A DNA stretch of 64,000 bases from Acidimicrobiales bacterium (GTDB lineage Bacteria; Actinomycetota; Acidimicrobiia; Acidimicrobiales; QHCF01), in the NCBI GenBank assembly GCA_039583615.1, contig JAVKSQ010000005.1:1004-65003 (forward strand), read 5' to 3'. Positions within the stretch are counted from its first letter, which is position 1; each line of letters begins with the position of its first letter. The notes beneath the pieces are model-generated. The model ran no database searches and was not told where the DNA came from. It worked only from the letters and a program-made list of their open reading frames with translations. Both the position numbers and the translations under genes were made by a program. This document shows, piece after piece, positions 51,180 through 62,517 of this stretch.

Positions 51180-53186
51180 GTGCTCATCGCGCAAGAGGAT
51201 GTGGCCAAGGTGAGGGCCGCCATCGACCTGGTCGCCTTGGTGGGTGAGCACCTGGCGCTCAAGCGCCAGGGCCGGCGATGGGTGGGGCTGTGCCCCTTCC
51301 ACGCCGAGACCACTCCGTCGTTCGGGGTCAACCCCGAGCTGGGTCTCTACCACTGCTTCGGGTGCCAGGCGTCGGGGGACGCCATCACCTTCGTGCGAGC
51401 GGTCGAGCACCTCGACTTCGTGGACGCGGTGGAGTGGCTGGCCGGGCGGGCCGGGATCAGCATCGCTCGAGAGGAACCTGGCTCCGGCCGTCGACCGGAT
51501 GGCCGGCAGCGGTCCCGGCTGCTGGAGGCTATGGAACGGGCGGTGGCCTGGTACCACGAGCGACTTCTGGCCCACCCAGATGGTGCCCCGGCTCGGGACT
51601 ACCTGGCGTCCAGGGGATATGACAAGGAGGTGGCTGGCGCCTTCCGGCTGGGGTGGGCGCCTCACGACTGGGACGCCCTGGCCCGAGCCCTCAAGCTTCC
51701 CGAGGAGGTCCTCACCGCAGCGGGCCTCGGCTTCGTCAACCGCGCCGGTCGGGTGCAGGATGCTTTTCGGGGGCGGGTGATCTTCCCCATCTTCGATCCG
51801 GGGGGACGGGCGGTGGCCCTGGGGGGCCGGGTGTTGCCCGGGGCGGGGCAAGTCGGTGGCCGAGAGGCCGGGCCCAAGTACAAGAACTCCCCCGAGACTG
51901 CCATCTACTCCAAGCGCCGGACGCTCTACGGGCTCAACTGGGCCAAGGCGAACGTGGTGGAGACCGGTGAGGTGATCGTGTGCGAGGGCTATACCGACGT
52001 GATCGCCTTCTTCGCCGCCGGAGCGCCCCGGGCAGTGGCGACATGCGGCACGGCCCTGGGCGAGGACCACCTCCGGGTGCTCAGGAGCTTCGCCCAGCGA
52101 GTGGTCCTGGCCTACGACGCCGACCGCGCCGGCCAGGCGGCCGCCGAACGGGTCTACGAGTGGGAGCGTCACCACGACCTGGACATCGCCGTGGCTGGCC
52201 TCCCGGGCGGTTCCGACCCGGCCGAGCTCGGTCAGCGAGATCCGGGGGCGCTGCTGGCCGCGGTCGAGCAGGCCCGGCCCTATCTGGCCTTTCGGGTGGA
52301 GCGGCTCCTCGGCGATGCTCACCTGGGCACCGCCGAGGGCCGAGCCAAGGCGGCCGAGGCGGCGCTGTCAGCCGTGGCCCAGCATCCCAACGAGCTGGTG
52401 CGCGACCAGTACGTGATGGACATCGCCGACCGCTGCCGGGTGCCAGCCGAGCGGTTGAGGGCCATGATGGCCAGCGGTCGTCCCAGGGCGGCGGCCCAGC
52501 ATCGGCTGGGTCACTCGGCTCGGCGTCCGGGGACGGCCGACGGCCGGCCCGGTCACCGAGGTGAAGGGGCCGACCGGGACGGGGCTGGACCTGGTCAGGC
52601 CGGCGCCGGGGGGTCGGATGGCCCCGGTGGCCCCGACGGCCGGGGACGCCGCCGAGGTGGCGTGGCCTCCGCAGACAACCAGGCCGGCTGGGACGGCCAA
52701 GAGCGGGAGCACGGCCGGTCCGCCGCCCCGGTCCCCACCGTGAGGTTGGCGCCAGGGCCGGGGACCGAAGCCCTGCGACTGGCTGTCCACCGGCCCCACG
52801 AGGTCGCCGACCGGCTGGAGGAGTTCCTGTTTGCGGACGGTCTGCAGCGCCGGGCCTTCGGCGCTCTGGCCAGCTCGGCCACCCTGCACGAGGCCATCGC
52901 CAATGCCGACCCGGAGGTGGCTGCGCTCCTCGGGCGCCTGGCCCTGGAGGACACCGAGGCGGACGCCGGCGACGTGGTCAACTTGCTGTTGGCCGACGCC
53001 CTTCGCCGGGCCCTGGAGGACCTGGAGGCCGATGCCCGGCGCTCGTACGAGAGCTTTGCCGAGCTGGCCGGGGACGCCACCTGGCTGAGGCAGGCGCTGG
53101 TCGAGCTCCGGGAGGCGCCTGCCGGATCAGTTGCGCCGCCTCGGTTGGTAGCCTGGTTGCGAGGTCGGGCGAAGGAGCAGTCATGA
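51180..53186 (+). CDS. dnaG: DNA primase
   Basis: Contains the zinc finger [25 protein letters not shown] and TOPRIM strings [12 protein letters not shown] and [13 protein letters not shown]. Confidence 0.92.
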
Positions 53187-54658
53187 GCAACGCCGGGACC
53201 GTGCTCGCCACGGCAGGGTTCCCCGAGGATGGGTTCGATCGCTTGTTCGAGATCGCCCGCCAGCGTGGCGTTCTCACCCAGGAGGACCTCATGGCCGTGC
53301 TGGAGACGGTGGAGCTGAGTGCCGATCTGATCGACGCCGTGGTCGACCGGGTGAAGGCAGCGGGGATCCACTACGCAGAGCCGGCCGACGATCTCGCCGG
53401 GGTGTCCGCCGCCCCCGTCGCCGGCCGGACCGACCATCTCCCTCCGGTAGGCGCCGCCCTTGAGGCTGACCCGGCGGCCGGCCTTACCGGTCCCAGCGAG
53501 GCGGTGGCGACCCGGGCTACGCCGGGTCGAGACCAGGTGACCAGCCTTGGCCATCCCGGCGACAACGCGGTGACCGCGCTCCCCCCCTCGGGCGAGGCGC
53601 CGGCCGATGCCCGTCCATTGCCGGCCAGGAGACGACGGGGACCGGCCAGGACTCGACCCGCAGCCACCGGCCGGGTCCGCCGGGACAGCGGGCGCGACAG
53701 CCGCGGTGACGAGGAGGCTCTGGGCCCGGCGGCCGACCCGGTGCACACCTATCTCCGGGAGATCGGGAAGGTCCCCCTGCTGCGCACCGAGGAGGAGGTG
53801 GCGCTGGCCCGGCGAGTGGCCGAGGGCATTGCCGCCGCTGAGAGACTGCTCGCCTCGGAGGACCACGGCGACCGCGGCCCTGACTTCGAAGAGGAGCTCC
53901 TGCGGGCCGAGCGGCTGGTGACCAGCGGCATCGAGGCCAAGCAGTGCCTCATCGAAGCCAACCTGCGCCTGGTGGTATCGATCGCCAAGCACTACCGAGG
54001 GCGAGGGCTGGCCTTTCTGGACCTCATCCAGGAGGGCAATCTCGGCTTGATGCGGGCGGTCGAGAAGTTCGACTACACCCGGGGCTTCAAGTTCTCGACC
54101 TACGCCACCTGGTGGATCCGCCAGGCGCTCACTCGTGCCCTGGCCGACCAGGCCCGGACCATCCGCATCCCGGTCCACATGGTCGAGCTGATCAACCGCA
54201 TGCTCAACGTTCAACGCCAAGGGGTGCAGGAGCTCGGTCGGGAGCCGACGGCCGAGGAGGTGGCCGGCTGGTTGGAGATGCCGGTCGAGCGGGTGCGAGA
54301 GCTGCAGCACCTCAGCCAGGAGACGATGTCCCTGGAGCAGCCGATGGGGGAGGAGGAGGGCTTCAGCCTCTCCGATCTGATCGAGGACCAAGAGGCGGTG
54401 GCACCGGCCGATGCGGCGGCCCGGGCCCTGCTCAACGAGGCGGTGAAGAAGGCGCTGGCCCAGCTGGACGACCGGGAGGCCGAGGTGGTGCGGCTGCGCT
54501 TCGGGCTCGACGACGGCCAGATGCGCACCCTCGAGGAGGTTGGGCGGGTGTTCGGCGTAACCCGCGAGAGGGTGCGTCAGATCGAGACGAAGACGCTGAA
54601 CAAGCTACGCCACCCGATGCACAGCCAGACGCTGCGGGAGTACCTGGACGAGGCTTGA
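53183..54658 (+). CDS. rpoD: Primary-type RNA polymerase sigma factor (group 1, RpoD/SigA-like)
   Basis: Strings [64 protein letters not shown] and RERVRQIE support the call. The ATGA start overlaps the dnaG stop. Confidence 0.93.
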
Positions 54659-54973: not shown

Positions 54974-55046
54974 TCCGGGGTAGCTCAATCGGCAGAGCAC
55001 GCGGCTGTTAACCGCGGTGTTGAGAGTTCGAGTCTCTCCCCCGGAG
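54974..55046 (+). tRNA. tRNA-Asn (anticodon GTT)
   Basis: Hand fold: TCCGGGG TA GCTC AATCGGCA GAGC A CGCGG CTGTTAA CCGCG GTGTT GAGAG TTCGAGT CTCTC CCCCGGA G. Confidence 0.9.
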
Positions 55047-55063
55047 CACCCGCCGCAGTCCCC

Positions 55064-55136
55064 GGGCCCGTAGCTCAGTGGTCAGAGCATGGGACTCATA
55101 ATCCCCTGGTCGTGGGTTCGATCCCCACCGGGCCCA
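55064..55136 (+). tRNA. tRNA with CAT anticodon (elongator Met; Ile2 cannot be excluded)
   Basis: Hand fold: GGGCCCG TA GCTC AGTGGTCA GAGC A TGGGA CTCATAA TCCCC TGGTC GTGGG TTCGATC CCCAC CGGGCCC A. The G1:C72 pair argues against an initiator. Confidence 0.85.
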
Positions 55137-55194
55137 CTGATGTCTCTCCTTTTCAGCCGCCTTGTTCCGTCTGTTCAGCCCCTCTGATGAGGTC

Positions 55195-55550: not shown

Positions 55551-55652
55551 GGCCCCAGTCATGTCGGGCTGACGACGGGGCGCGAACAAGAAAGCCGCCG
55601 CGTAGGTGTGCGTAAGCGCCACCTCGGAGACCGTCCACATAGAACCCTACTT

Positions 55653-55702
55653 ACAAGAACAGAACGGTCATCCTTGCATTTTGTTCTTGTCAACGCTAGC
55701 CT
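55653..55702 (+). promoter_or_regulatory. Candidate promoter (TTGCAT-17 nt-TAGCCT) overlapped by a perfect 9-bp inverted repeat upstream of the cassette
   Basis: ACAAGAACA (55653-55661) and TGTTCTTGT (55682-55690) are exact reverse complements with a 20-nt spacer. TTGCAT lies at 55674-55679 and TAGCCT at 55697-55702, about 22 nt before the first cassette ATG (55725). Confidence 0.3.
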
Positions 55703-55724
55703 CACCCGTGAACAGGGAGCGAGC

Positions 55725-55958
55725 ATGGCAGAGCAGGGGAAGCCCAGAGGTCGCACCGTCTTCTCCGTTCGACTGGATGGCTTGGAACTGCCGTCGGAGA
55801 TCACCCTTCGGATCGCCGTCGCCGTGCGCCGCGCCATTCTTGCCGAGATGGCTGAAGTCGATCTTGTGTCCGGCTTTCGCGTCCAGGATTTGGCAGCCCT
55901 GGAGAGCGGTGGCGGGACGCAGGGAATTGCGATCGTCGCCGACGTTGCGGAGGACTAG
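55725..55958 (+). CDS. Small ORF (77 aa), candidate precursor peptide or accessory; no Cys, C-terminal ...LESGGGTQGIAIVADVAED
   Basis: This is the last 77 codons of track ORF 55278..55958. The ATG is preceded by AGGGAG. The stop is followed after 2 nt by the next GTG. Confidence 0.5.
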   Translation: MAEQGKPRGRTVFSVRLDGLELPSEITLRIAVAVRRAILAEMAEVDLVSGFRVQDLAALESGGGTQGIAIVADVAED

Positions 55959-55960
55959 CT

Positions 55961-56377
55961 GTGCGCTCGATGCAAGTCGCCAGGGCTCACGAATGCCTCT
56001 GCCCGAGCGGACGTTGCCGGGAGGGGGCCAAGTTGCTGGGCGTAGTTGGGACTGATGGCTGTGTCAGCTTCCTGACGCCAGCCATTCCAATAAGCGAGGT
56101 CTTTGTTGACAAGGCATTGGCGATCGGGCGCACCGGTGCCCGATTCCGTTTCGCTGAGCCATGCGCGCAGAGTGACTGTGAGCACTGGGCTGGGGAGCGC
56201 TGCCAGTTGATCGATCGTTTCATCGTAGACGGACCGTGCGACGATGTGGACTCCTCGAGAACGAAGCTCCCGGTGTGTGGCATCCGGGTCTCTTGCCGAT
56301 GGTATGGACAGCGGGGCCGGCGTGCCTGCGCGGTGTGTCCCATGGTCATTCGTGAGCCTTTAGCGGCGATTTCATAA
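55961..56377 (+). CDS. Cysteine-rich protein (138 aa, 12 Cys), function unknown
   Basis: Track ORF. Cys strings are ECLCPSGRC, DGC, EPCAQSDCEHW, ERC, GPC, PVCGIRVSC and RACAVCP. It is tightly coupled to the upstream ORF. The overlapping minus ORF is low complexity and contrary to the operon direction. Confidence 0.5.
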   Translation: MRSMQVARAHECLCPSGRCREGAKLLGVVGTDGCVSFLTPAIPISEVFVDKALAIGRTGARFRFAEPCAQSDCEHWAGERCQLIDRFIVDGPCDDVDSSRTKLPVCGIRVSCRWYGQRGRRACAVCPMVIREPLAAIS

Positions 56378-56408
56378 CGAAGATTTCTCAACCAGAAGGA
56401 GGAGTCGC

Positions 56409-56657
56409 ATGGAAGACGAACCGAGAGAGGATGAGGATACCGTCGTCCCGATCAGGGAGCGGCATGTCGTCATGACGCCTACCGGCGTTACCTTTGTTCT
56501 CAATGAGGAAGACCAGCGTCAGGCTCGTCGCTGCCTTGAGCGGACCGGCAACATCACCATCAATTTCGGGGAAGTGACTGTCTCAAGTCTCAGTGAGATC
56601 AGGCGGCTCGAGCGGATCGCTGACGGGCCCGATGGCGGTGTCGGTCCGATCGACTGA
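56409..56657 (+). CDS. Small ORF (82 aa), candidate RiPP precursor; acidic N-terminus, C-terminal ...RIADGPDGGVGPID
   Basis: A strong SD (AAGGAGG at 56396-56402) lies 6 nt before the ATG. The stop is followed after 2 nt by the GTG start of the DUF692 gene. Confidence 0.6.
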   Translation: MEDEPREDEDTVVPIRERHVVMTPTGVTFVLNEEDQRQARRCLERTGNITINFGEVTVSSLSEIRRLERIADGPDGGVGPID

Positions 56658-56659
56658 CA

Positions 56660-57541
56660 GTGCCAACGCCCAGGTTGACGCCGGCCATCGGTCTCGGCTC
56701 GGATGCCGTTGCCGTGGGCATGGCATACAGCAGAGCCGCTGCAGGCCTTGTATGCGACTTGCTCGATGATCTCGACTACGTCGAGTATCCCTATGAGTTG
56801 CTGATGTGCAACGCCGCCGCGGCCGAGATGGCTTGCAACTCGACCGCCGTGCTGCACTGCGCAAGTCTGTCATTGGCGTCGGGTGACCCACCCGACGCGG
56901 CGGTCCTCCACACCGTCGCCGACTGGGCCGATCGGCTCGACTCTCCCTGGGTGGGTGAGCATTTCGCATTTGTGGCCGCCCGGAACCCTGGCCCGTGGGC
57001 AGGGGACGACCCGGGGCGGGAAGACAGAGTCTTCAACATCGGCTTTGCGATCAGCCCGCCGTTGAACGCCGACACGGTCGAGAGCGTTGCAGAGGCGTTG
57101 GCGGCCGTCGTGACGGTTGTGCGACGACCATTCGTTATCGAGAACTCCCCGGTCTATTTCCCAATGCCGGGTTCCGGGATGGGGCAGGGAGAAGCGTTCA
57201 CGGCACTAACTCGCCTCAGCGATGTTGGCGTGCTGATGGACTTGGCCCATCTGCTGATTACCTGCGACACGATGGGATTGGACCCGTTGGCTGAGCTCCG
57301 CCGCTTTCCGCTCGATCGCGTGGTCGAGGTGCATCTCTCTGGGGTTTCGCGGGATTCCGGTGTGCTGTGGGACGATCATGCGTCCGCCCCCGTAGCAGCG
57401 GAGTACGAGCTCTTGAACGTCGTACTCCATGATGCGCCAGTTCGCGCGATCACGCATGAGTACAACTGGGCGCCTAGGTTTCCCGCGGACGTCGCCCGCC
57501 GGGAGATTGACCGCACCCACCAGATACTGGGCTCCAGGTAG
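56660..57541 (+). CDS. DUF692-family protein (MbnB/TglH-like multinuclear non-heme iron oxidative enzyme, MNIO)
   Basis: Family-order strings are present: AIGLGSD, VLHCASLSLAS, WVGEHFAF, PFVIENSPVYF, GVLMDLAHLL, VVEVHLSG, LWDDHAS and ITHEYNW. These provide His/Glu/Asp ligand candidates in the order I recall for MbnB-type TIM-barrel enzymes. Confidence 0.8.
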   Translation: MPTPRLTPAIGLGSDAVAVGMAYSRAAAGLVCDLLDDLDYVEYPYELLMCNAAAAEMACNSTAVLHCASLSLASGDPPDAAVLHTVADWADRLDSPWVGEHFAFVAARNPGPWAGDDPGREDRVFNIGFAISPPLNADTVESVAEALAAVVTVVRRPFVIENSPVYFPMPGSGMGQGEAFTALTRLSDVGVLMDLAHLLITCDTMGLDPLAELRRFPLDRVVEVHLSGVSRDSGVLWDDHASAPVAAEYELLNVVLHDAPVRAITHEYNWAPRFPADVARREIDRTHQILGSR

Positions 57542-57569
57542 TGACCGAGGGCAAGGCGGCCCCGAGGCC

Positions 57570-59513
57570 ATGACGGTCGAGACTCGCGCCGTCAACGCCA
57601 TGATCGCGCGAGGTCTCGTCGAACCCTCATTCCTTGTCGCTCTCGATCAGGATAGAGGCCGGGTACTCGACGACATGGGGATCTCCAGCGGGACGCGCCA
57701 GGATTTCATCGGACTTGATTGCCATCGCCTGGCGCTGATGGCCACGTTCATATGTAAGGTGAAGAACAATGACCTCTGGAGCACCCTGCCCCTAACCCGG
57801 GCGCTGCTACAGGAATACGGCAGCGAGCTAGAGGTGTTCGGGGTCTTCAGCCGACGGAGTCCGCAGCGTGGTGGCTCGCTTCACGAGCGCGTCAGCGCGT
57901 TGGTCGAGTGCCTTCTGTCCTACGCGTCCGCTCGCCGCGGCCAGGTCCCAGGCCTGGAGGATGTCGTCCGCCACGAGTGGCTTGTAGCCCGGTTCTCGAA
58001 CGGGTGGGGACTAGAGGCATCGTCGTTGGACACGGTCGATGACGACCCTCCCGAGGCGCGGCCAGCGAACCTCTGGCGACCAAGGATTCGAGGGACGGTC
58101 TTGGTGCAGAGCTACGAGCACGACCCGCTGCGTGTGCAGCTTGCATGGCAAGCACGGGAGTGGACCAGATCGATGGCTCCGCCGACCGAGCCAACATTTT
58201 TGTGCTACTCGTTGGGCGACACGCCGGGAAGCCGGCTCCGAGTCTTTAGGATGGATCCAGCCGTGGCTCTGATTGTCGGCTGGGTGGATGGTCAGCGGTC
58301 TCCGATCGAAATTGCCAATCTCATGGGTGCAGGCACGGACGCGGCGCTCGTTGTCCGAGTCCTTCTCGCCGCAGCTCAGGAGGGGATCATTCGTTCCCCG
58401 AGCGCTGAGGTCTTGGCCGCGCTTCAACGACATCACGGAGACGTCGGTGGCCTGCCGGCTAAAAGCTCGAAGGAGCACGAACCACTCTTCGGCGGTAGCC
58501 GTCAGCGGGGGCCGGATCAAGTGCTCGATCTTGTGAGCGGCTACGCCGCTGGCCGCCTCCTATACACGCTGCAGCGAATCGGAGCCCTTGGGCGCTTCGG
58601 CACTCCGAGTAGGGCTGCTTCTGTCGCGGTGGAGCTCGGCGTTGATCGAGCGTGGCTCGAGGCCGTGGTGCAGTTTCTCGCGGTGACTGGAGGCGTCTTC
58701 CGCCAGCTCGACGGCGGCCGTTACGTCGTCGAGTTGGACGAACGCGAACGACAGCGGCTGAACTTCGAGTTGACCAAGTTCGTCGGGGCCTACGGAGCGT
58801 GCCTCGATGCGGTTGGGCCGGCTCCTGACGTCGTCGACGCTGACGCATTTGCTGATGCGTTCAGCGCGTCGGTTCACAGCCGTGCTGATCGCCCCTACCA
58901 TGGCTCGTTGATTCCGGGACTGCTCCGCGAGTTTGGCGTGGCATCGGGACTCTTGGATCTTGGCTGTGGGACCGGTGACCTTCTCATCGATCTAGCGGTC
59001 AGCGACGAGGGCTTCCACGGGATCGGAATCGATGAGAACCGCGCGATGTGTGCTCGTGCGGTGGCGGAGGCCGGACGAGCAGCTGTCCTGCGACGAGTGC
59101 GCATATTTAGTGGCGATGCGTTCGATGTCCTGGCAAATCTTCCGCTAGATGCGATGTGCCCGATGACGGCGGCGCACTCGGCGAGCTTCTTCAACGCCCT
59201 GTTTGCGAACGGGCATCGCCGAGCGGTTGACATCCTCACGCTGCTCAGCGACCGGCTCGGCCGCCGCCTTTTGTTCATCGACGACTACTACGGGCAGCTG
59301 GGTGTGGACTTCGATGCTCATGTTGGTCTGACATGGTCGATGATGCAGGACCTCGTCCAAGTCTGTTCCGGGCAGGGCGTGCCACCGAGGGAGCGGGTCG
59401 ATTGGGAGGCGGTGTACCAACGTGCGGGGTGCCGGCTTCTCCGCTCGTATGAGGGCACGCTCGGCGGGTTCCCGCGCTTTATCCACGTGGTCCAACTCGC
59501 AGCCGCCTCGTAG
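57570..59513 (+). CDS. Three-module fusion: MNIO-partner-like N-terminal region, PqqD-like recognition element, winged-helix plus class I SAM O-methyltransferase
   Basis: The start is ATG 57570 (MTVETRAV...). Mid-region: RVFRMDPAVALIVGWVDGQRSPIEIANLMGAGTDAALVVRVLLAAAQEGII (PqqD/RRE-like). Then LVSGYAAGRLLYTLQRIGALGRFGTPSRAASVAVELGVD (OMT dimerisation/wHTH-like). Then LLDLGCGTGDLLIDLA and IGIDENRAM (SAM motifs I and II). Confidence 0.7.
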   Translation: MTVETRAVNAMIARGLVEPSFLVALDQDRGRVLDDMGISSGTRQDFIGLDCHRLALMATFICKVKNNDLWSTLPLTRALLQEYGSELEVFGVFSRRSPQRGGSLHERVSALVECLLSYASARRGQVPGLEDVVRHEWLVARFSNGWGLEASSLDTVDDDPPEARPANLWRPRIRGTVLVQSYEHDPLRVQLAWQAREWTRSMAPPTEPTFLCYSLGDTPGSRLRVFRMDPAVALIVGWVDGQRSPIEIANLMGAGTDAALVVRVLLAAAQEGIIRSPSAEVLAALQRHHGDVGGLPAKSSKEHEPLFGGSRQRGPDQVLDLVSGYAAGRLLYTLQRIGALGRFGTPSRAASVAVELGVDRAWLEAVVQFLAVTGGVFRQLDGGRYVVELDERERQRLNFELTKFVGAYGACLDAVGPAPDVVDADAFADAFSASVHSRADRPYHGSLIPGLLREFGVASGLLDLGCGTGDLLIDLAVSDEGFHGIGIDENRAMCARAVAEAGRAAVLRRVRIFSGDAFDVLANLPLDAMCPMTAAHSASFFNALFANGHRRAVDILTLLSDRLGRRLLFIDDYYGQLGVDFDAHVGLTWSMMQDLVQVCSGQGVPPRERVDWEAVYQRAGCRLLRSYEGTLGGFPRFIHVVQLAAAS

Positions 59514-59516
59514 CCG

Positions 59517-60188
59517 ATGGCCACAGCGACCATTAGGCCCGTGGCAGCGACCTGGGACGGTGTTTTGCCGCCCAGCGAGCTCAGTCAGCTGTTGGAGTAC
59601 GCGGTGTATCGCGAGAGCGAGTTCGTCGACACCCAGGTCCTCGGTGCCGATGATGGCGCGGTCTCGGTCGTGGATCGGAACATGAGACGGAACACGCACT
59701 TACGGGGCACCGCTAATGTGCCATGTGCTGTCATGCGGCGCCTCAAGGAGTATATCCCAGTGTTGGCCCGGTCCATTGGTCAGGATGATGACAGATGTTC
59801 AGACGGTGTGTACGAGGCAGAGATTACCGCCACGGGACATGGTGGCTTCTTCACCGCTCACGTCGACGATGCGAATGCTCGTGTACGGGATCGCTCGATC
59901 AGCTTCGTTCTCTTCTTCAGCGAATGCCCCAGACCATTTCGAGGTGGCCATCTCTGCATCGAACGCGACTGGAGGGACGACGATCAACTGTTTATCTTCG
60001 ATGCTGTGCGGGATGGCCGACTGAGCAGGTCTGAGGTAGCCGAGATCATAGAGCCCAAAGCCAACCGGCTCGTCGTCTTTGCGAGTCATCGGCTCCATGA
60101 GGTTCGGCCGGTGTGGACCAGGTCGAGCCAGTTCCGGTGCTCGAGATTCACGGTGACCGGCTTCCTCCGATCCTCCGATCGGCGTTAG
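59517..60188 (+). CDS. 2-oxoglutarate/Fe(II)-dependent oxygenase (prolyl-4-hydroxylase-like)
   Basis: FFTAHVDD provides the HxD, ISFVLFFS follows, and NRLVVFASHRLHEVRPV provides the distal His and Arg. It lies 3 nt after the preceding stop. Confidence 0.75.
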   Translation: MATATIRPVAATWDGVLPPSELSQLLEYAVYRESEFVDTQVLGADDGAVSVVDRNMRRNTHLRGTANVPCAVMRRLKEYIPVLARSIGQDDDRCSDGVYEAEITATGHGGFFTAHVDDANARVRDRSISFVLFFSECPRPFRGGHLCIERDWRDDDQLFIFDAVRDGRLSRSEVAEIIEPKANRLVVFASHRLHEVRPVWTRSSQFRCSRFTVTGFLRSSDRR

Positions 60189-60220
60189 AAACACCTACTT
60201 TCCTGGCTCTATGCGTCTGA

Positions 60221-61240
60221 GTGGGGAGACCAGGTGCGGATCCCGGAGCGGGGAAGTTCGTCTTGCCAAGTAACGCCGCCGACGTGGAGGGCACCGTCAT
60301 GGCTGGCGGTATCGGGACGCCCGGCTCCGAGACCAGCCGCTTGTGGATGCGAAGGAGAGGATCGGCCTTCCTGGCGCGCTGGCCCAGCGTCTCGTTCTGG
60401 ACCCGGCGGCGAACCTTGTTCCTGGAGCTCTCGAAGGAGGTCCGCCAAAGCGTCCGGGCCGAGGTGGCCAAGGCCAGGGAAGGGCTGAGCGAGGGCCAGG
60501 GTCACCAGGTCGTCGTCGACCCGCTGCTCCGCTACCGGATCACCGTGGAGATCCTGACCGAGTCGGGCCAACTCCGGGTGATGGACGAGCGGCTGGAGGC
60601 GCTCAAGGCCGACGGGACCCGGACGCCAGCCGACGCCCGTTTATCTGGCAGGAGGTGGCCGAGAGCTGGATCCGCCCTTCGTCGGGAGGAAGAGGGCCAT
60701 ACCCTCTACGAGGAGATCGGCCAGGACCGCCCGATCGCCTCCAAGCGGCTCTACCCTCCCCACTACCCCCACATCTCCGCCTTGGGCGAGGAGCTGGCCC
60801 GCTGGCGGACCTACTACCTGGAGCCCTCGGCCATGCGCAGGGAGACGCCGCTGCGGGAGGTGACCGTCCTCCCACCCGACGGCAGCGACTGGAGCCTCTG
60901 TCGGTGGTGGGCTACGAGGAGCCCGAGAACGGTGTTCACCCCGACCGTCTCTCGATGGTGGGCCGGGTCCTGTCGAGCGCGGCCGAGCGCGGCCGAGCGC
61001 GGCACGACGTAGTACCTGGTGAACACCCACTCGCCGCTGCTGTCGGAGTATTTCCTGGGGGCGGGCGCTGCGGCCCGGATCGTCCGCTGCTCCCGCCACG
61101 GCCGGGAGACCCTGTTCGAGACCCTCGACGACCTCAACCTCCTCAGTGCCAGTACCATCGCCGACGGGCTGGCCGACGACTTCTCCCCACCGCTGGCCTC
61201 GACATTCGCCCAGCGAATGGTGCGGGGAGACTTCCGCTGA
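60221..61240 (+). pseudogene. ABC-type (AAA_15/21-like) ATPase remnants spread over three frames
   Basis: Fragments are RYRITVEILTESGQLRVMDERLEAL, ...LARWRTYYLEPSAMRRETPL, VVGYEEPENGVHPDRL (Walker B/D-loop-like, about 60907-60950) and NTHSPLLSEYF (H-loop-like, about 61019-61050). They sit in different frames. No intact Walker A was seen. Confidence 0.5.
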
Positions 61241-61420
61241 TCGCCGTGGGCCTGTTCGCCGAGGGCGACGGGCACCGGGCCCTCGTGGGCCTCATTGCCC
61301 TGGGCCCACTCCACCATCTCCCACACCACCACGTACTACACACTAATCACAGCGTACTACCGAGCTGGTGGCATCGACCACCAGCCGCGACGCACGGACG
61401 CCCGCTCCTGCCAGTCCGGC

Positions 61421-61834
61421 TCAGACTGGTCTCGACAGGGGGCGGGCAAGGCTGAGCTCATGGCCGTCGGGATCGCGAATGTGGAAGTAGCGCTCGCCCC
61501 ACGGCCCATCGGCCGGCTCGGTCTGTGGTGCGAACCCCGCCTCCAGCGCCCGGCGGTGCATGGCGTCGACATCGTGCACCCAGAAGACGACTCGGCCCCA
61601 GGGGGGGCTTCCGACCGGGCGGGGGGCGTGCGCCTGCAGGTTGAGGTAGCTCCCGCCTACCTGGTAGCTGGTGAACGACGCGTCCGGTCCCCCGAAGAGC
61701 AGCTCGAAGCCCATGACCCGGTAGAAAGACACCGCCTCGGCCATGTCCGAGGTGAGCAGCGTCACCGCACTGAGGCGCTCGATAGCCGGTTGCTCGGTCC
61801 TCACCGCCTCGCATCTTCTCAGATGGCGAAGCAT
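61421..61834 (-). CDS. VOC-family (glyoxalase/bleomycin-resistance/dioxygenase fold) protein
   Basis: Strings LSAVTLLTSDMAEAVSFYRVMGFEL and GERYFHIRDPDGHELSL support the call. The start is uncertain (the second ATG of the track ORF was chosen). Confidence 0.75.
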   Translation of the reverse strand: MLRHLRRCEAVRTEQPAIERLSAVTLLTSDMAEAVSFYRVMGFELLFGGPDASFTSYQVGGSYLNLQAHAPRPVGSPPWGRVVFWVHDVDAMHRRALEAGFAPQTEPADGPWGERYFHIRDPDGHELSLARPLSRPV

Positions 61835-61938
61835 CGGGAGGATGGTCCTTGGCCGCGGTACCCTCGCCGCCAATAAAGGCAAGCGTGCCGTGACCGTGGC
61901 AAACTGTTGGCGACACGGCCGCCTACCCAGGAGAATCG

Positions 61939-62517
61939 ATGAATCGCAGGGAGCTCGTCAGCGCTGTCGCCACCCACACTGGTGTCGATTCTCGTGACGT
62001 GGACAAGGTGTTGCGAGGTGCCACCGAAGTCATCGAGGCAGTGGCAGCCAAGGGCGAGCAGGTGACGATCAGCGGCTTCGCCAAGTTCGCTCGGGTGGAT
62101 CGGCCGGCCCGTATGGCTCGCAACCCAGGGACGGGGGAGCCGGTCAAGGTGAGAGCGTCCAAGAAGGCAAGGATCACCCCCCTCAAGGGCTTCAAGGACG
62201 CGGTGATGAGGCCCATGGCCGCCCCCAAGCTGGCCAAGGGAGTGTGGCCGCCCGTGCCAGCCAAGGCTTCGCCAGGTGCAGGCTCAGCTCGCCGGGCCGG
62301 GCCGGCCCGGGCGGTGACATCCAGGGCTCCAGCCAGGTCGTCGCCCGCCAGCAAGGCTGGTGCGAGCAAGGCGGCCGCCACCAAGCCCGCCCCGCCAGGA
62401 CCGCCAGCCAAGCGGGCTGGAGCCGCCAAGGCAGCCCCAGCGGCCAAGAAGCCCGCCAGCGGCCCTCGCTATGTCAGTCGCCTGCCTTCCCGCCAAGGCG
62501 GGCCGTCTCCTTCTTGA
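61939..62517 (+). CDS. hup: HU-family nucleoid protein with long Ala/Lys/Pro-rich C-terminal tail (actinobacterial HupB/Hlp type)
   Basis: MNRRELVSAVATHTGV...VTISGFAKFARVDRPARMARNPGTGEPVKV is followed by a PAKKA-like tail. AGGAGA precedes the ATG. Confidence 0.88.
   Translation: MNRRELVSAVATHTGVDSRDVDKVLRGATEVIEAVAAKGEQVTISGFAKFARVDRPARMARNPGTGEPVKVRASKKARITPLKGFKDAVMRPMAAPKLAKGVWPPVPAKASPGAGSARRAGPARAVTSRAPARSSPASKAGASKAAATKPAPPGPPAKRAGAAKAAPAAKKPASGPRYVSRLPSRQGGPSPS

Follow-up and report, generated by a model that had tools for sequence, protein, structure and literature searches.

The locus described here raises the question of what is made from a small open reading frame (ORF) that lies directly upstream of a gene for an oxidative enzyme that depends on multinuclear non-haem iron (MNIO), and what happens to the aspartate at the end of the encoded peptide. 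The gene pair is located in a 64,000-nucleotide stretch of DNA from an Acidimicrobiales bacterium (contig JAVKSQ010000005.1; the whole stretch is hereafter termed the window), within a run of six co-directional genes at 55.6-60.2 kb that encode ORF77, ORF138, ORF82, the MNIO, a fusion protein and a 2-oxoglutarate (2OG)-dependent oxygenase. The original prediction proposed that the terminal Asp of ORF82 is modified by the MNIO and the product then methylated, as in the aminopyruvatide pathway. It is likely that ORF82 is indeed the precursor of a divergent aminopyruvatide-type member of the peptides that are made by the ribosome and modified after translation (RiPPs), encoded in a cassette with an ApyA-like peptide, an ApyH-like MNIO, an ApyI-ApyS fusion and a 2OG oxygenase. 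The features of the precursor gene are as follows.

56396..56402, forward strand: Shine-Dalgarno sequence AAGGAGG, 6 nt before the ORF82 ATG, read directly from the sequence.
56409..56657, forward strand: ORF82, ATG at 56409 to TGA at 56655-56657, 82 aa; predicted ApyA-family precursor peptide.
56532..56549, forward strand: codons for C42-L-E-R-T-G47, the C-B-X3-G motif of ApyA.
56628..56654, forward strand: codons for the tail P74-D-G-G-V-G-P80-I-D82, with Pro80 at position -3 and Asp82 as the predicted MNIO target.

Re-reading of the window reproduced exactly the 82-residue translation originally reported for ORF82, including its ...PDGGVGPID tail. The Shine-Dalgarno sequence is, as had been claimed, the strongest in the cassette, AAGGAGG being the longest anti-Shine-Dalgarno match among all of the cassette starts. 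The reported gap of 2 nt between the ORF82 stop codon and the MNIO gene is right for a GTG start at 56660, the MNIO start itself being uncertain (see below). The peptide consists of a conserved leader-like region (approximately residues 19-68) followed by a variable tail (residues 69-82). Comparison of ORF82 with its relatives showed that synonymous sites are saturated (proportion of differences, pS, 0.63-0.90), whereas the corresponding non-synonymous value (pN) is 0.13-0.30; where computable, the ratio of non-synonymous to synonymous rates (dN/dS) is 0.07-0.22. As pN is far below the saturated pS, ORF82 is a translated gene under purifying selection. A scan of the cassette for promoters and terminators returned nothing above shuffle expectation.

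According to the paper that defined the class (PMC11117315), ApyA peptides are diverse in sequence, and conservation is confined to a C-B-X2-3-G motif in the central part and an Asp at the C terminus. In the characterized pathway ApyHI turns this Asp into aminopyruvic acid, the β-carbon of which is next C-methylated by ApyS, and the conserved Cys, although unmodified, is essential for ApyHI (PMC11117315). With E. coli as the host, ApyHI showed no activity. Both hallmarks are present in ORF82, as C42-L-E-R-T-G47 and the terminal D82. Against the NCBIfam model NF050152 ('broader_ApyA') the peptide has an E value of 3.8e-10 and 39.7 bits, just under the cutoff of 40, and it is the sole match to the ApyA profile among the ORFs of the entire window. 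When the ORF82 clade was compared with 76 ApyA candidates by hhalign, the two profiles aligned with a probability of 97.4% (E 1.3e-11) over a region that spans the Cys motif. Judged by these profile matches and hallmarks, ORF82 is a member of the ApyA (aminopyruvatide) precursor family. The single Cys of the peptide, far from its C terminus, had been viewed as an obstacle to MNIO chemistry; this objection falls, as the residue is the Cys of the CBX2-3G motif, which ApyHI requires but leaves unmodified (PMC11117315).

The wider distribution of the signature was explored by scanning species-representative genomes with an MNIO alignment, which yielded 80 loci from Actinomycetota, Pseudomonadota, Acidobacteriota, Bacteroidota and other phyla. 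In 77 of these 80 independent loci the ORF just upstream of the MNIO combines the C-B-X2-3-G motif with a terminal Asp; in the other three it has the same motif and ends in Asn. Homologues of ORF82 itself are 59-84% identical overall; the close intact ones (76-84% identical) all retain ...PDGGVGPID, while the terminal Asp and C42-L-E-R-x-G47 are invariant among all of the intact homologues seen. Conservation of the terminal Asp, which had been put forward as a check on the proposal, is thus evident both close to ORF82 and across the wider family, and the motif and terminal Asp of ORF82 go far beyond what chance would give. Conversion of the C-terminal Asp by an ApyHI-like system, followed by methylation, with ORF82 as the substrate, is therefore supported by homology: the NCBIfam hits, the hhalign match and the 41% identity of the MNIO to ApyH (see below) are joined by a motif and terminal Asp shared by 77 of 80 related loci. 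The three Asn-ending precursors, which carry CBX3G, are L017 7513-7779 (...AEVIVN), L049 2267-2596 (...SMVTSN) and L080 7654-7980 (...ALVIVN), and suggest a sub-group in which the residue modified at the C terminus is not Asp.

The enzymes that follow ORF82 are listed below.

56660..57541, forward strand: ApyH-like MNIO, 293 aa; PF05114, E 1.6e-28; NF050151 ApyH.
57570..59513, forward strand: ApyI-ApyS fusion, 647 aa, one continuous ORF.
57585-58379, forward strand: ApyI-like partner domain, residues 6-270 of the fusion; NF050149, E 1.7e-21, 76.7 bits (cutoff 200).
58521-59498, forward strand: ApyS-like S-adenosylmethionine-dependent methyltransferase, residues 318-643 of the fusion; NF050150, E 2e-57, 194.8 bits (cutoff 400).
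59517..60188, forward strand: 2OG-Fe(II) oxygenase of the prolyl-hydroxylase/PKHD type, 223 aa; PF13640, E 1.6e-14.

The MNIO, methyltransferase and 2OG-oxygenase domains are also supported by Pfam. Against NF050151 (ApyH) the MNIO scores 294.5 bits (E 6.7e-88, cutoff 400), the runner-up family, BufB, reaching 80.8 bits, and the protein is 41% identical over 273 residues to the Burkholderia thailandensis ApyH ABC35712, the sequence of which was taken from the supplement of PMC11117315. By comparison, ApyH from the canonical cluster of Streptomyces smaragdinus (L005) scores 444.6 bits against the same model. As the window MNIO lies below the 400-bit cutoff, it represents a divergent subfamily and is not itself a curated equivalog. 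Invariance extends to the residues that typically act as metal ligands in MNIOs. In a neighbour-joining tree the 2OG-linked MNIOs (five loci placed) form a single clade, sister to the canonical actinobacterial clusters, and the precursor tail types follow the MNIO phylogeny. By profile match and tree position the enzyme is of the ApyH lineage, nested among ApyH-type loci. An identical protein on an NCBI record (P0006) is 273 aa in length, corresponding to a start at ATG 56720. This start would remove V19-G20, which is conserved and aligns to ApyH, and a start at GTG 56660 or TTG 56675 is for this reason more likely.

The ApyI-type partner contains a RiPP recognition element in the characterized system (PMC11117315). 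In the cassette this partner and the ApyS-like methyltransferase form an unbroken ORF in the window, L001, L002, L086 and L171-L174, with a length of 609-647 aa in most relatives; the frame is interrupted in the frameshift-prone L003 and L085, and L087 is without the S part. The oxygenase displays the iron-binding residues H115-x-D117...H194 and the 2OG-binding R210, all of which are invariant, and all of the complete relatives found have a related enzyme encoded next after the partner/methyltransferase gene, although with frameshifts in L003 and L087.

Close relatives of the cassette were found on 11 contigs (L001/L002, L003, L085, L086, L087 and L171-L174, together with L004, a near-identical but short fragment). 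The core order of precursor, MNIO, ApyI-ApyS fusion and 2OG oxygenase recurs in L001/L002, L003, L085, L086 and L171-L174, while L087 retains A, H and I together with a frameshifted 2OG oxygenase. The canonical arrangement, exemplified by L005, comprises separate genes for ApyI, ApyD (670 bits) and ApyS, and in the set of 80 genome loci a distance of 2.0-2.5 kb separates the match to I from that to S, the space that is occupied by ApyD in L005; the one exception has a gap of 471 nt. In the window there is no room for an ApyD gene because the I and S domains are directly fused, and a tblastn search with the L005 ApyD found no match anywhere in the window. Similarly, tblastn with one cytochrome P450 probe, the P450 gene from L001, returned no match in the window. 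Among published apy clusters ApyS is present in 93%, the B12-radical-SAM enzyme ApyD in 97%, and the P450 ApyO together with aromatic residues at positions -2/-4 of the precursor in 74% (PMC11117315). The joint absence from the window of a P450 and of aromatic residues at -2/-4 (the predicted tail ends G-P-I-D) is internally consistent with this correlation. No cluster of the window's layout is present in the published RODEO data set, in which a 2OG oxygenase occurs just once, flanking a canonical cluster at a distance of 3.6 kb, and full-text searches found no description of such a variant within the literature covered. On its predicted gene content the cassette belongs to a known RiPP class but has a new architecture: ApyD and ApyO are absent, ApyI and ApyS are fused and a 2OG oxygenase has been added.

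Some of the relatives have features of their own. L003 (10001-13640, ERZ1700618) displays frame breaks in the precursor, MNIO, fusion and 2OG oxygenase genes, reflecting either errors in a long-read assembly or a decaying copy; the C-terminal 28 residues of its precursor, although out of frame, are still 93% identical to ORF82. Loci L171-L174 (for example L171 20-5014 and 9417-10565) contain additional conserved neighbours: the 2OG oxygenase is followed by an unannotated protein of ~380 aa, and there are also a Cupin_8/JmjC-like protein, a DUF6445 protein and a luciferase-like monooxygenase. L171 also carries YcaO and TfuA, a pair tied to thioamide formation. None of these proteins is found with the window cassette.

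Comparison with characterized systems places the cassette closest to the aminopyruvatide pathway of B. thailandensis E264 (PMC11117315). The two share the C-B-X2-3-G motif of the precursor (CLE in both), the terminal Asp, an ApyH-lineage MNIO next to the precursor, and both a partner resembling ApyI and a methyltransferase resembling ApyS. They differ in that the window encodes I and S as one 647-aa protein and an additional 2OG oxygenase, while only the B. thailandensis cluster has ApyD and ApyO; the window tail is also longer and contains Pro, and its proteins score below the equivalog cutoffs of all of the hidden Markov models. As the tail lacks aromatic residues at -2/-4, no biaryl macrocycle is expected in the window product. 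Canonical actinobacterial apy-like clusters, for example L005 and those in metagenome-assembled genomes of Jatrophihabitans and Ornithinibacter (L006 and L007), encode MNIOs of the sister clade and precursors with a similar leader (...VVITPSSMVFSLTPEHREKARACLERSG...) and non-aromatic tails that end V/I-V/I-D, preceded in L006 and L007 by DGG. In contrast to the window, these clusters have separate ApyI, ApyD and ApyS genes in that order, their tails lack Pro at -3, and no relative of the window 2OG oxygenase was detected beside them. Other MNIOs act on Asp or at the C terminus. PesHI, which makes nitrilobacillins, and PflD both modify Asp, and the nitrilobacillin pathway also contains an α-ketoglutarate-dependent proline hydroxylase; however, the reported identity of these MNIOs to ApyH is below 30%, the Asp on which they act is not C-terminal, no ApyS-like methyltransferase accompanies them, and the proline hydroxylase is of the HExxH type rather than PF13640. 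MovX, which converts a C-terminal Asn to a C-terminal amide, resembles the window MNIO in acting on the last residue, and the precursors of L017, L049 and L080 likewise end in Asn. MovX differs in its fused winged helix-turn-helix domain, in requiring no partner and in belonging to another MNIO cluster (PMC12452194), and the window peptide ends in Asp.

The tails of the 2OG clade are rich in Pro. The window peptide ends ...ADGPDGGVGPID, L171-L174 end ...PDGGTGPAP(P)GPGPID, L085 ends ...ESTNLEPITQVD, and L086 and L087 end ...DPE(F/L)GPPQPVD. Pro occupies position -3 in nine of ten distinct tails of this clade and in none of the 76 other ApyA candidates. Within the last eight residues Pro is found in all ten clade tails, compared with two of 28 non-aromatic tails elsewhere (Fisher p ~1e-7, uncorrected for shared ancestry). 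From this co-occurrence we infer that the 2OG oxygenase hydroxylates the ORF82 tail, probably at Pro80.

The following pathway is proposed. By analogy with the characterized system (PMC11117315), the ApyI-like domain would bind the region around C42-L-E-R-T-G47 and present the flexible tail to the MNIO, which would oxidize Cβ of Asp82 and, with decarboxylation, generate a C-terminal aminopyruvic acid. The fused ApyS domain would then C-methylate the β-carbon to give 3-amino-2-oxobutanoate, also as in B. thailandensis. Our own extension of this scheme is that the 2OG oxygenase may hydroxylate a tail residue, most likely Pro80, and so take the tailoring role held by ApyD and ApyO in canonical clusters. 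On this scheme an α-keto-β-amino acid warhead would be borne by a linear peptide without a macrocycle. Asp82 is thus probably turned into a keto-acid protease-inhibitor warhead.

The two genes upstream of ORF82 require separate consideration.

55725..55958, forward strand: ORF77, 77 aa; small partner of the ORF138 family, not ApyA-type.
55961..56377, forward strand: ORF138, 138 aa; widespread uncharacterized family with eight invariant Cys.

ORF77 ends ...LESGGGTQGIAIVADVAED, and the originally reported sequence was exact when checked against the window. The protein is 52-64% identical to its closest relatives, with dN/dS of 0.13-0.19, indicative of purifying selection, and its family has one invariant Gly (G67, in a 'G-I/L' motif). 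The original prediction had grouped ORF77 with ORF82 as a peptide of the same kind, a view that does not survive: ORF77 has no Cys and hence no Cys motif, hhalign against the ApyA profile gave an E value of 0.12, and hmmsearch found no match even at E<=10. Its terminal Asp is a coincidence, because the C termini differ among homologues, the close ones ending ...AELGG, ...IAER and ...QREP and the distant ones in many residues. The idea that ORF77 is a divergent, Cys-less ApyA paralogue, based on an eyeballed 'LP..I..A..R...VDL' pattern, was also considered and rejected; hhalign placed the two in the same register, with a probability of 0.5%.

ORF138 belongs to a family with 824 cluster representatives at E<=1e-3. 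It has no Pfam or NCBIfam match that reaches a family cut-off and no credible sequence match in the PDB (best E 0.075), and longer homologues display no informative domain fusions. Its AlphaFold (AF2) model is confident (predicted local distance difference test, pLDDT, 90.4) and has no fold match in the PDB. Nothing in the ORF77 family reaches a Pfam cut-off, and neither window protein matches PADLOC or PHROGs. A survey of 83 further loci with an ORF138 family member (three plasmids and 80 metagenome contigs, many of them short; L088-L170, with the window and L001-L003 excluded) showed that an ORF77-type protein of ~70-95 aa precedes most ORF138 homologues where upstream sequence is available, the genes often being tightly spaced or overlapping. 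These small proteins share the N-terminal consensus EFxVxLDGxxLxxExxxxIxxAIQxAVLxELAxxD, while the C-terminal region, including the last residue, is variable. On the plasmids the neighbours include genes for NHLP-type exporters, nonribosomal peptide synthetases, phosphopantetheinyl transferases and MbtH; elsewhere they include a radical-SAM/SPASM enzyme and ferritin-like proteins, so that the setting varies but is often a biosynthetic one. An MNIO match was found in only one of the 83 loci, and the module is lacking in the 80 ApyH-type genome loci, in L085-L087 and in L171-L174. As judged by this distribution, ORF77 and ORF138 are a separate, widespread module of two genes that just happens to accompany the cassette in this sub-lineage. 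In the single MNIO-associated locus, L161 (2185-7720), the module and a canonical apy cluster (A, H, I, D and S, with a precursor ending ...AWLYD) are in convergent orientation, a second, independent juxtaposition.

Several observations weigh against assigning the cassette to the aminopyruvatide class with its full chemistry. All four NCBIfam Apy scores (39.7/40, 294.5/400, 76.7/200 and 194.8/400) are under the curated cutoffs, and NCBI rules would therefore not call the cassette proteins equivalogs. The kinship of ORF82 with ApyA is detectable by profile methods only, BLASTP against B. thailandensis ApyA having produced no alignment, and the distance from the Cys to the C terminus is 37-41 residues in the measured tails of the ORF82 clade (41 in the window) compared with 27-35 in other ApyA candidates. 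AlphaFold models of ORF82 (five sequences) were uninformative (pLDDT 49). In B. thailandensis removal of the P450 abolished the activities of ApyHI and ApyS, ApyHI being dependent on earlier action of the P450 (PMC11117315); as the cassette has no P450, its substrate requirements must differ. The best PDB profile matches of the 2OG oxygenase, to 4iw3_A, human EGLN prolyl hydroxylases and PiuC, are weak (E 0.013-1), and phmmer against the PDB gave no match; 4iw3 we take to be a bacterial prolyl hydroxylase, the title of the entry reading just 'putative uncharacterized protein'. The Pro-containing tails of the 2OG-linked loci are not independent observations because all of them come from one clade. 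Finally, the chemistry assigned to the cassette is a prediction.

The main rival view is that the family is correctly identified but its chemistry is not, with the MNIO only β-hydroxylating the terminal Asp, or carrying out another oxidation, and the methyltransferase acting on a different atom, for example by O-methylation of a carboxylate. MNIOs that end at 3-hydroxy-Asp exist, PesHI and PflD among them (literature), the window MNIO and methyltransferase are well below the ApyH and ApyS cutoffs, and the context, with a 2OG oxygenase and without ApyD and ApyO, is not that of the characterized cluster. However, the window MNIO, at 41% identity and nested within ApyH-type loci, is closer to ApyH than PesH and PflD are reported to be; ORF82 keeps both the terminal Asp and the essential Cys motif; and the strict retention of an ApyS-like domain, fused to the partner, is in keeping with a pathway that has to supply ApyS with its α-keto acid intermediate. 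We consider this alternative improbable. A similarly low probability attaches to the proposal, which concerns maturation rather than the modification itself, that Gly-Gly is a double-glycine leader cleavage site, such that the mature product would be VGPI followed by the modified Asp. PDGG is conserved in the window, in P0002-P0004 and in L171-L174, DGG is also found in L006, L007 and L055, and B. thailandensis ApyA has AGG. Against this, GG is lacking in the L085-L087 tails and is present within the last 16 residues of only 22 of 76 ApyA peptides, L171-L174 have 10-11 residues after GG compared with five in the window, and neither Pfam nor NCBIfam identified a C39 peptidase, other protease or exporter among the six cassette products. 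As GG is patchy across the family, being conserved in just one sub-clade of the 2OG-linked loci, and the cassette encodes no peptidase or exporter, we do not accept it as a demonstrated cleavage site or, as had been suggested, as a shared end-of-leader motif; it could be a hinge that lends flexibility, or an element for local recognition. Leader removal is unresolved for canonical ApyA too (PMC11117315).

A different objection is that ORF82 is an accessory protein and that the true substrate of the MNIO is ORF138, with its 12 Cys, or ORF77. Most characterized MNIOs act on Cys, the two genes are immediately upstream on the same strand and in the same low-GC islet, and the module abuts a canonical apy cluster in L161 as well. 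The near-absence of MNIO genes from the module loci (one of 83, though many contigs are short) and the lack of the module beside most ApyH-type enzymes argue in the opposite direction, as do the compact predicted fold of ORF138 with its eight invariant Cys and the location of the family-specific substrate hallmarks in ORF82. This explanation, raised for the 12-Cys ORF in the original prediction, is highly improbable. It is conceivable, although unlikely, that ORF77 and ORF138 constitute an undescribed peptide-maturation system of their own, in which ORF77 would be a precursor of a new kind, its ~47-residue conserved N-terminal region and hypervariable C-terminal region resembling a leader and core, and ORF138 its ~135-aa partner; the cassette would then hold two independent systems. 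That possibility is unrelated to the terminal Asp of ORF77.

The surroundings of the cassette include the following features.

54974-55047: tRNA-Asn (ARAGORN).
55064..55137, forward strand: tRNA-Met (ARAGORN); the low-GC islet begins ~0.5 kb further on.
61421-61882, reverse strand: glyoxalase-family gene.
61939-62517: HU-type DNA-binding protein (PF00216); its long C-terminal tail is rich in Ala, Lys and Pro.

The six-gene cassette coincides with a region of reduced GC content (0.57-0.66 across ~55600-60200, compared with ~0.70 in the flanks). A search of the island boundaries for an att-like direct repeat of the 3' end of tRNA-Met was negative. The segment 55160-55570 could be read as the frameshifted N terminus of an integrase, which is a guess only, as no family or BLAST match confirmed it. 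Upstream of the islet are genes that we take to encode DnaG primase (51180-53186) and a principal sigma factor (53183-54658). The ~1.2 kb between the 2OG oxygenase and the glyoxalase-family gene (60200-61420) contains only overlapping high-GC ORFs, without family matches. HU proteins with such a long tail are of a kind known from Actinomycetota.

Desmethyl-aminopyruvatide A, which has at its C terminus the α-keto-β-amino acid generated by ApyHI and ApyS, inhibits papain-family cysteine proteases with sub-nanomolar IC50 values (PMC13192836). In the clade described here this warhead is predicted to sit on a Pro-rich peptide that is linear, has no macrocycle and possibly contains hydroxyproline, which, if true, would be a different inhibitor scaffold. 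With one peptide and three enzymes, and neither a B12-radical-SAM enzyme nor a P450, the cassette also offers a simpler test system, and one that could show how an unmodified but essential Cys aids the action of an MNIO on a residue ~40 positions away. That ApyI and ApyS are naturally fused suggests a partner that passes the peptide on to the methyltransferase as well as to the MNIO, and the co-variation of the 2OG oxygenase with Pro at -3 provides a concrete, testable hypothesis comparable to the correlation already published for the P450 and aromatic residues.

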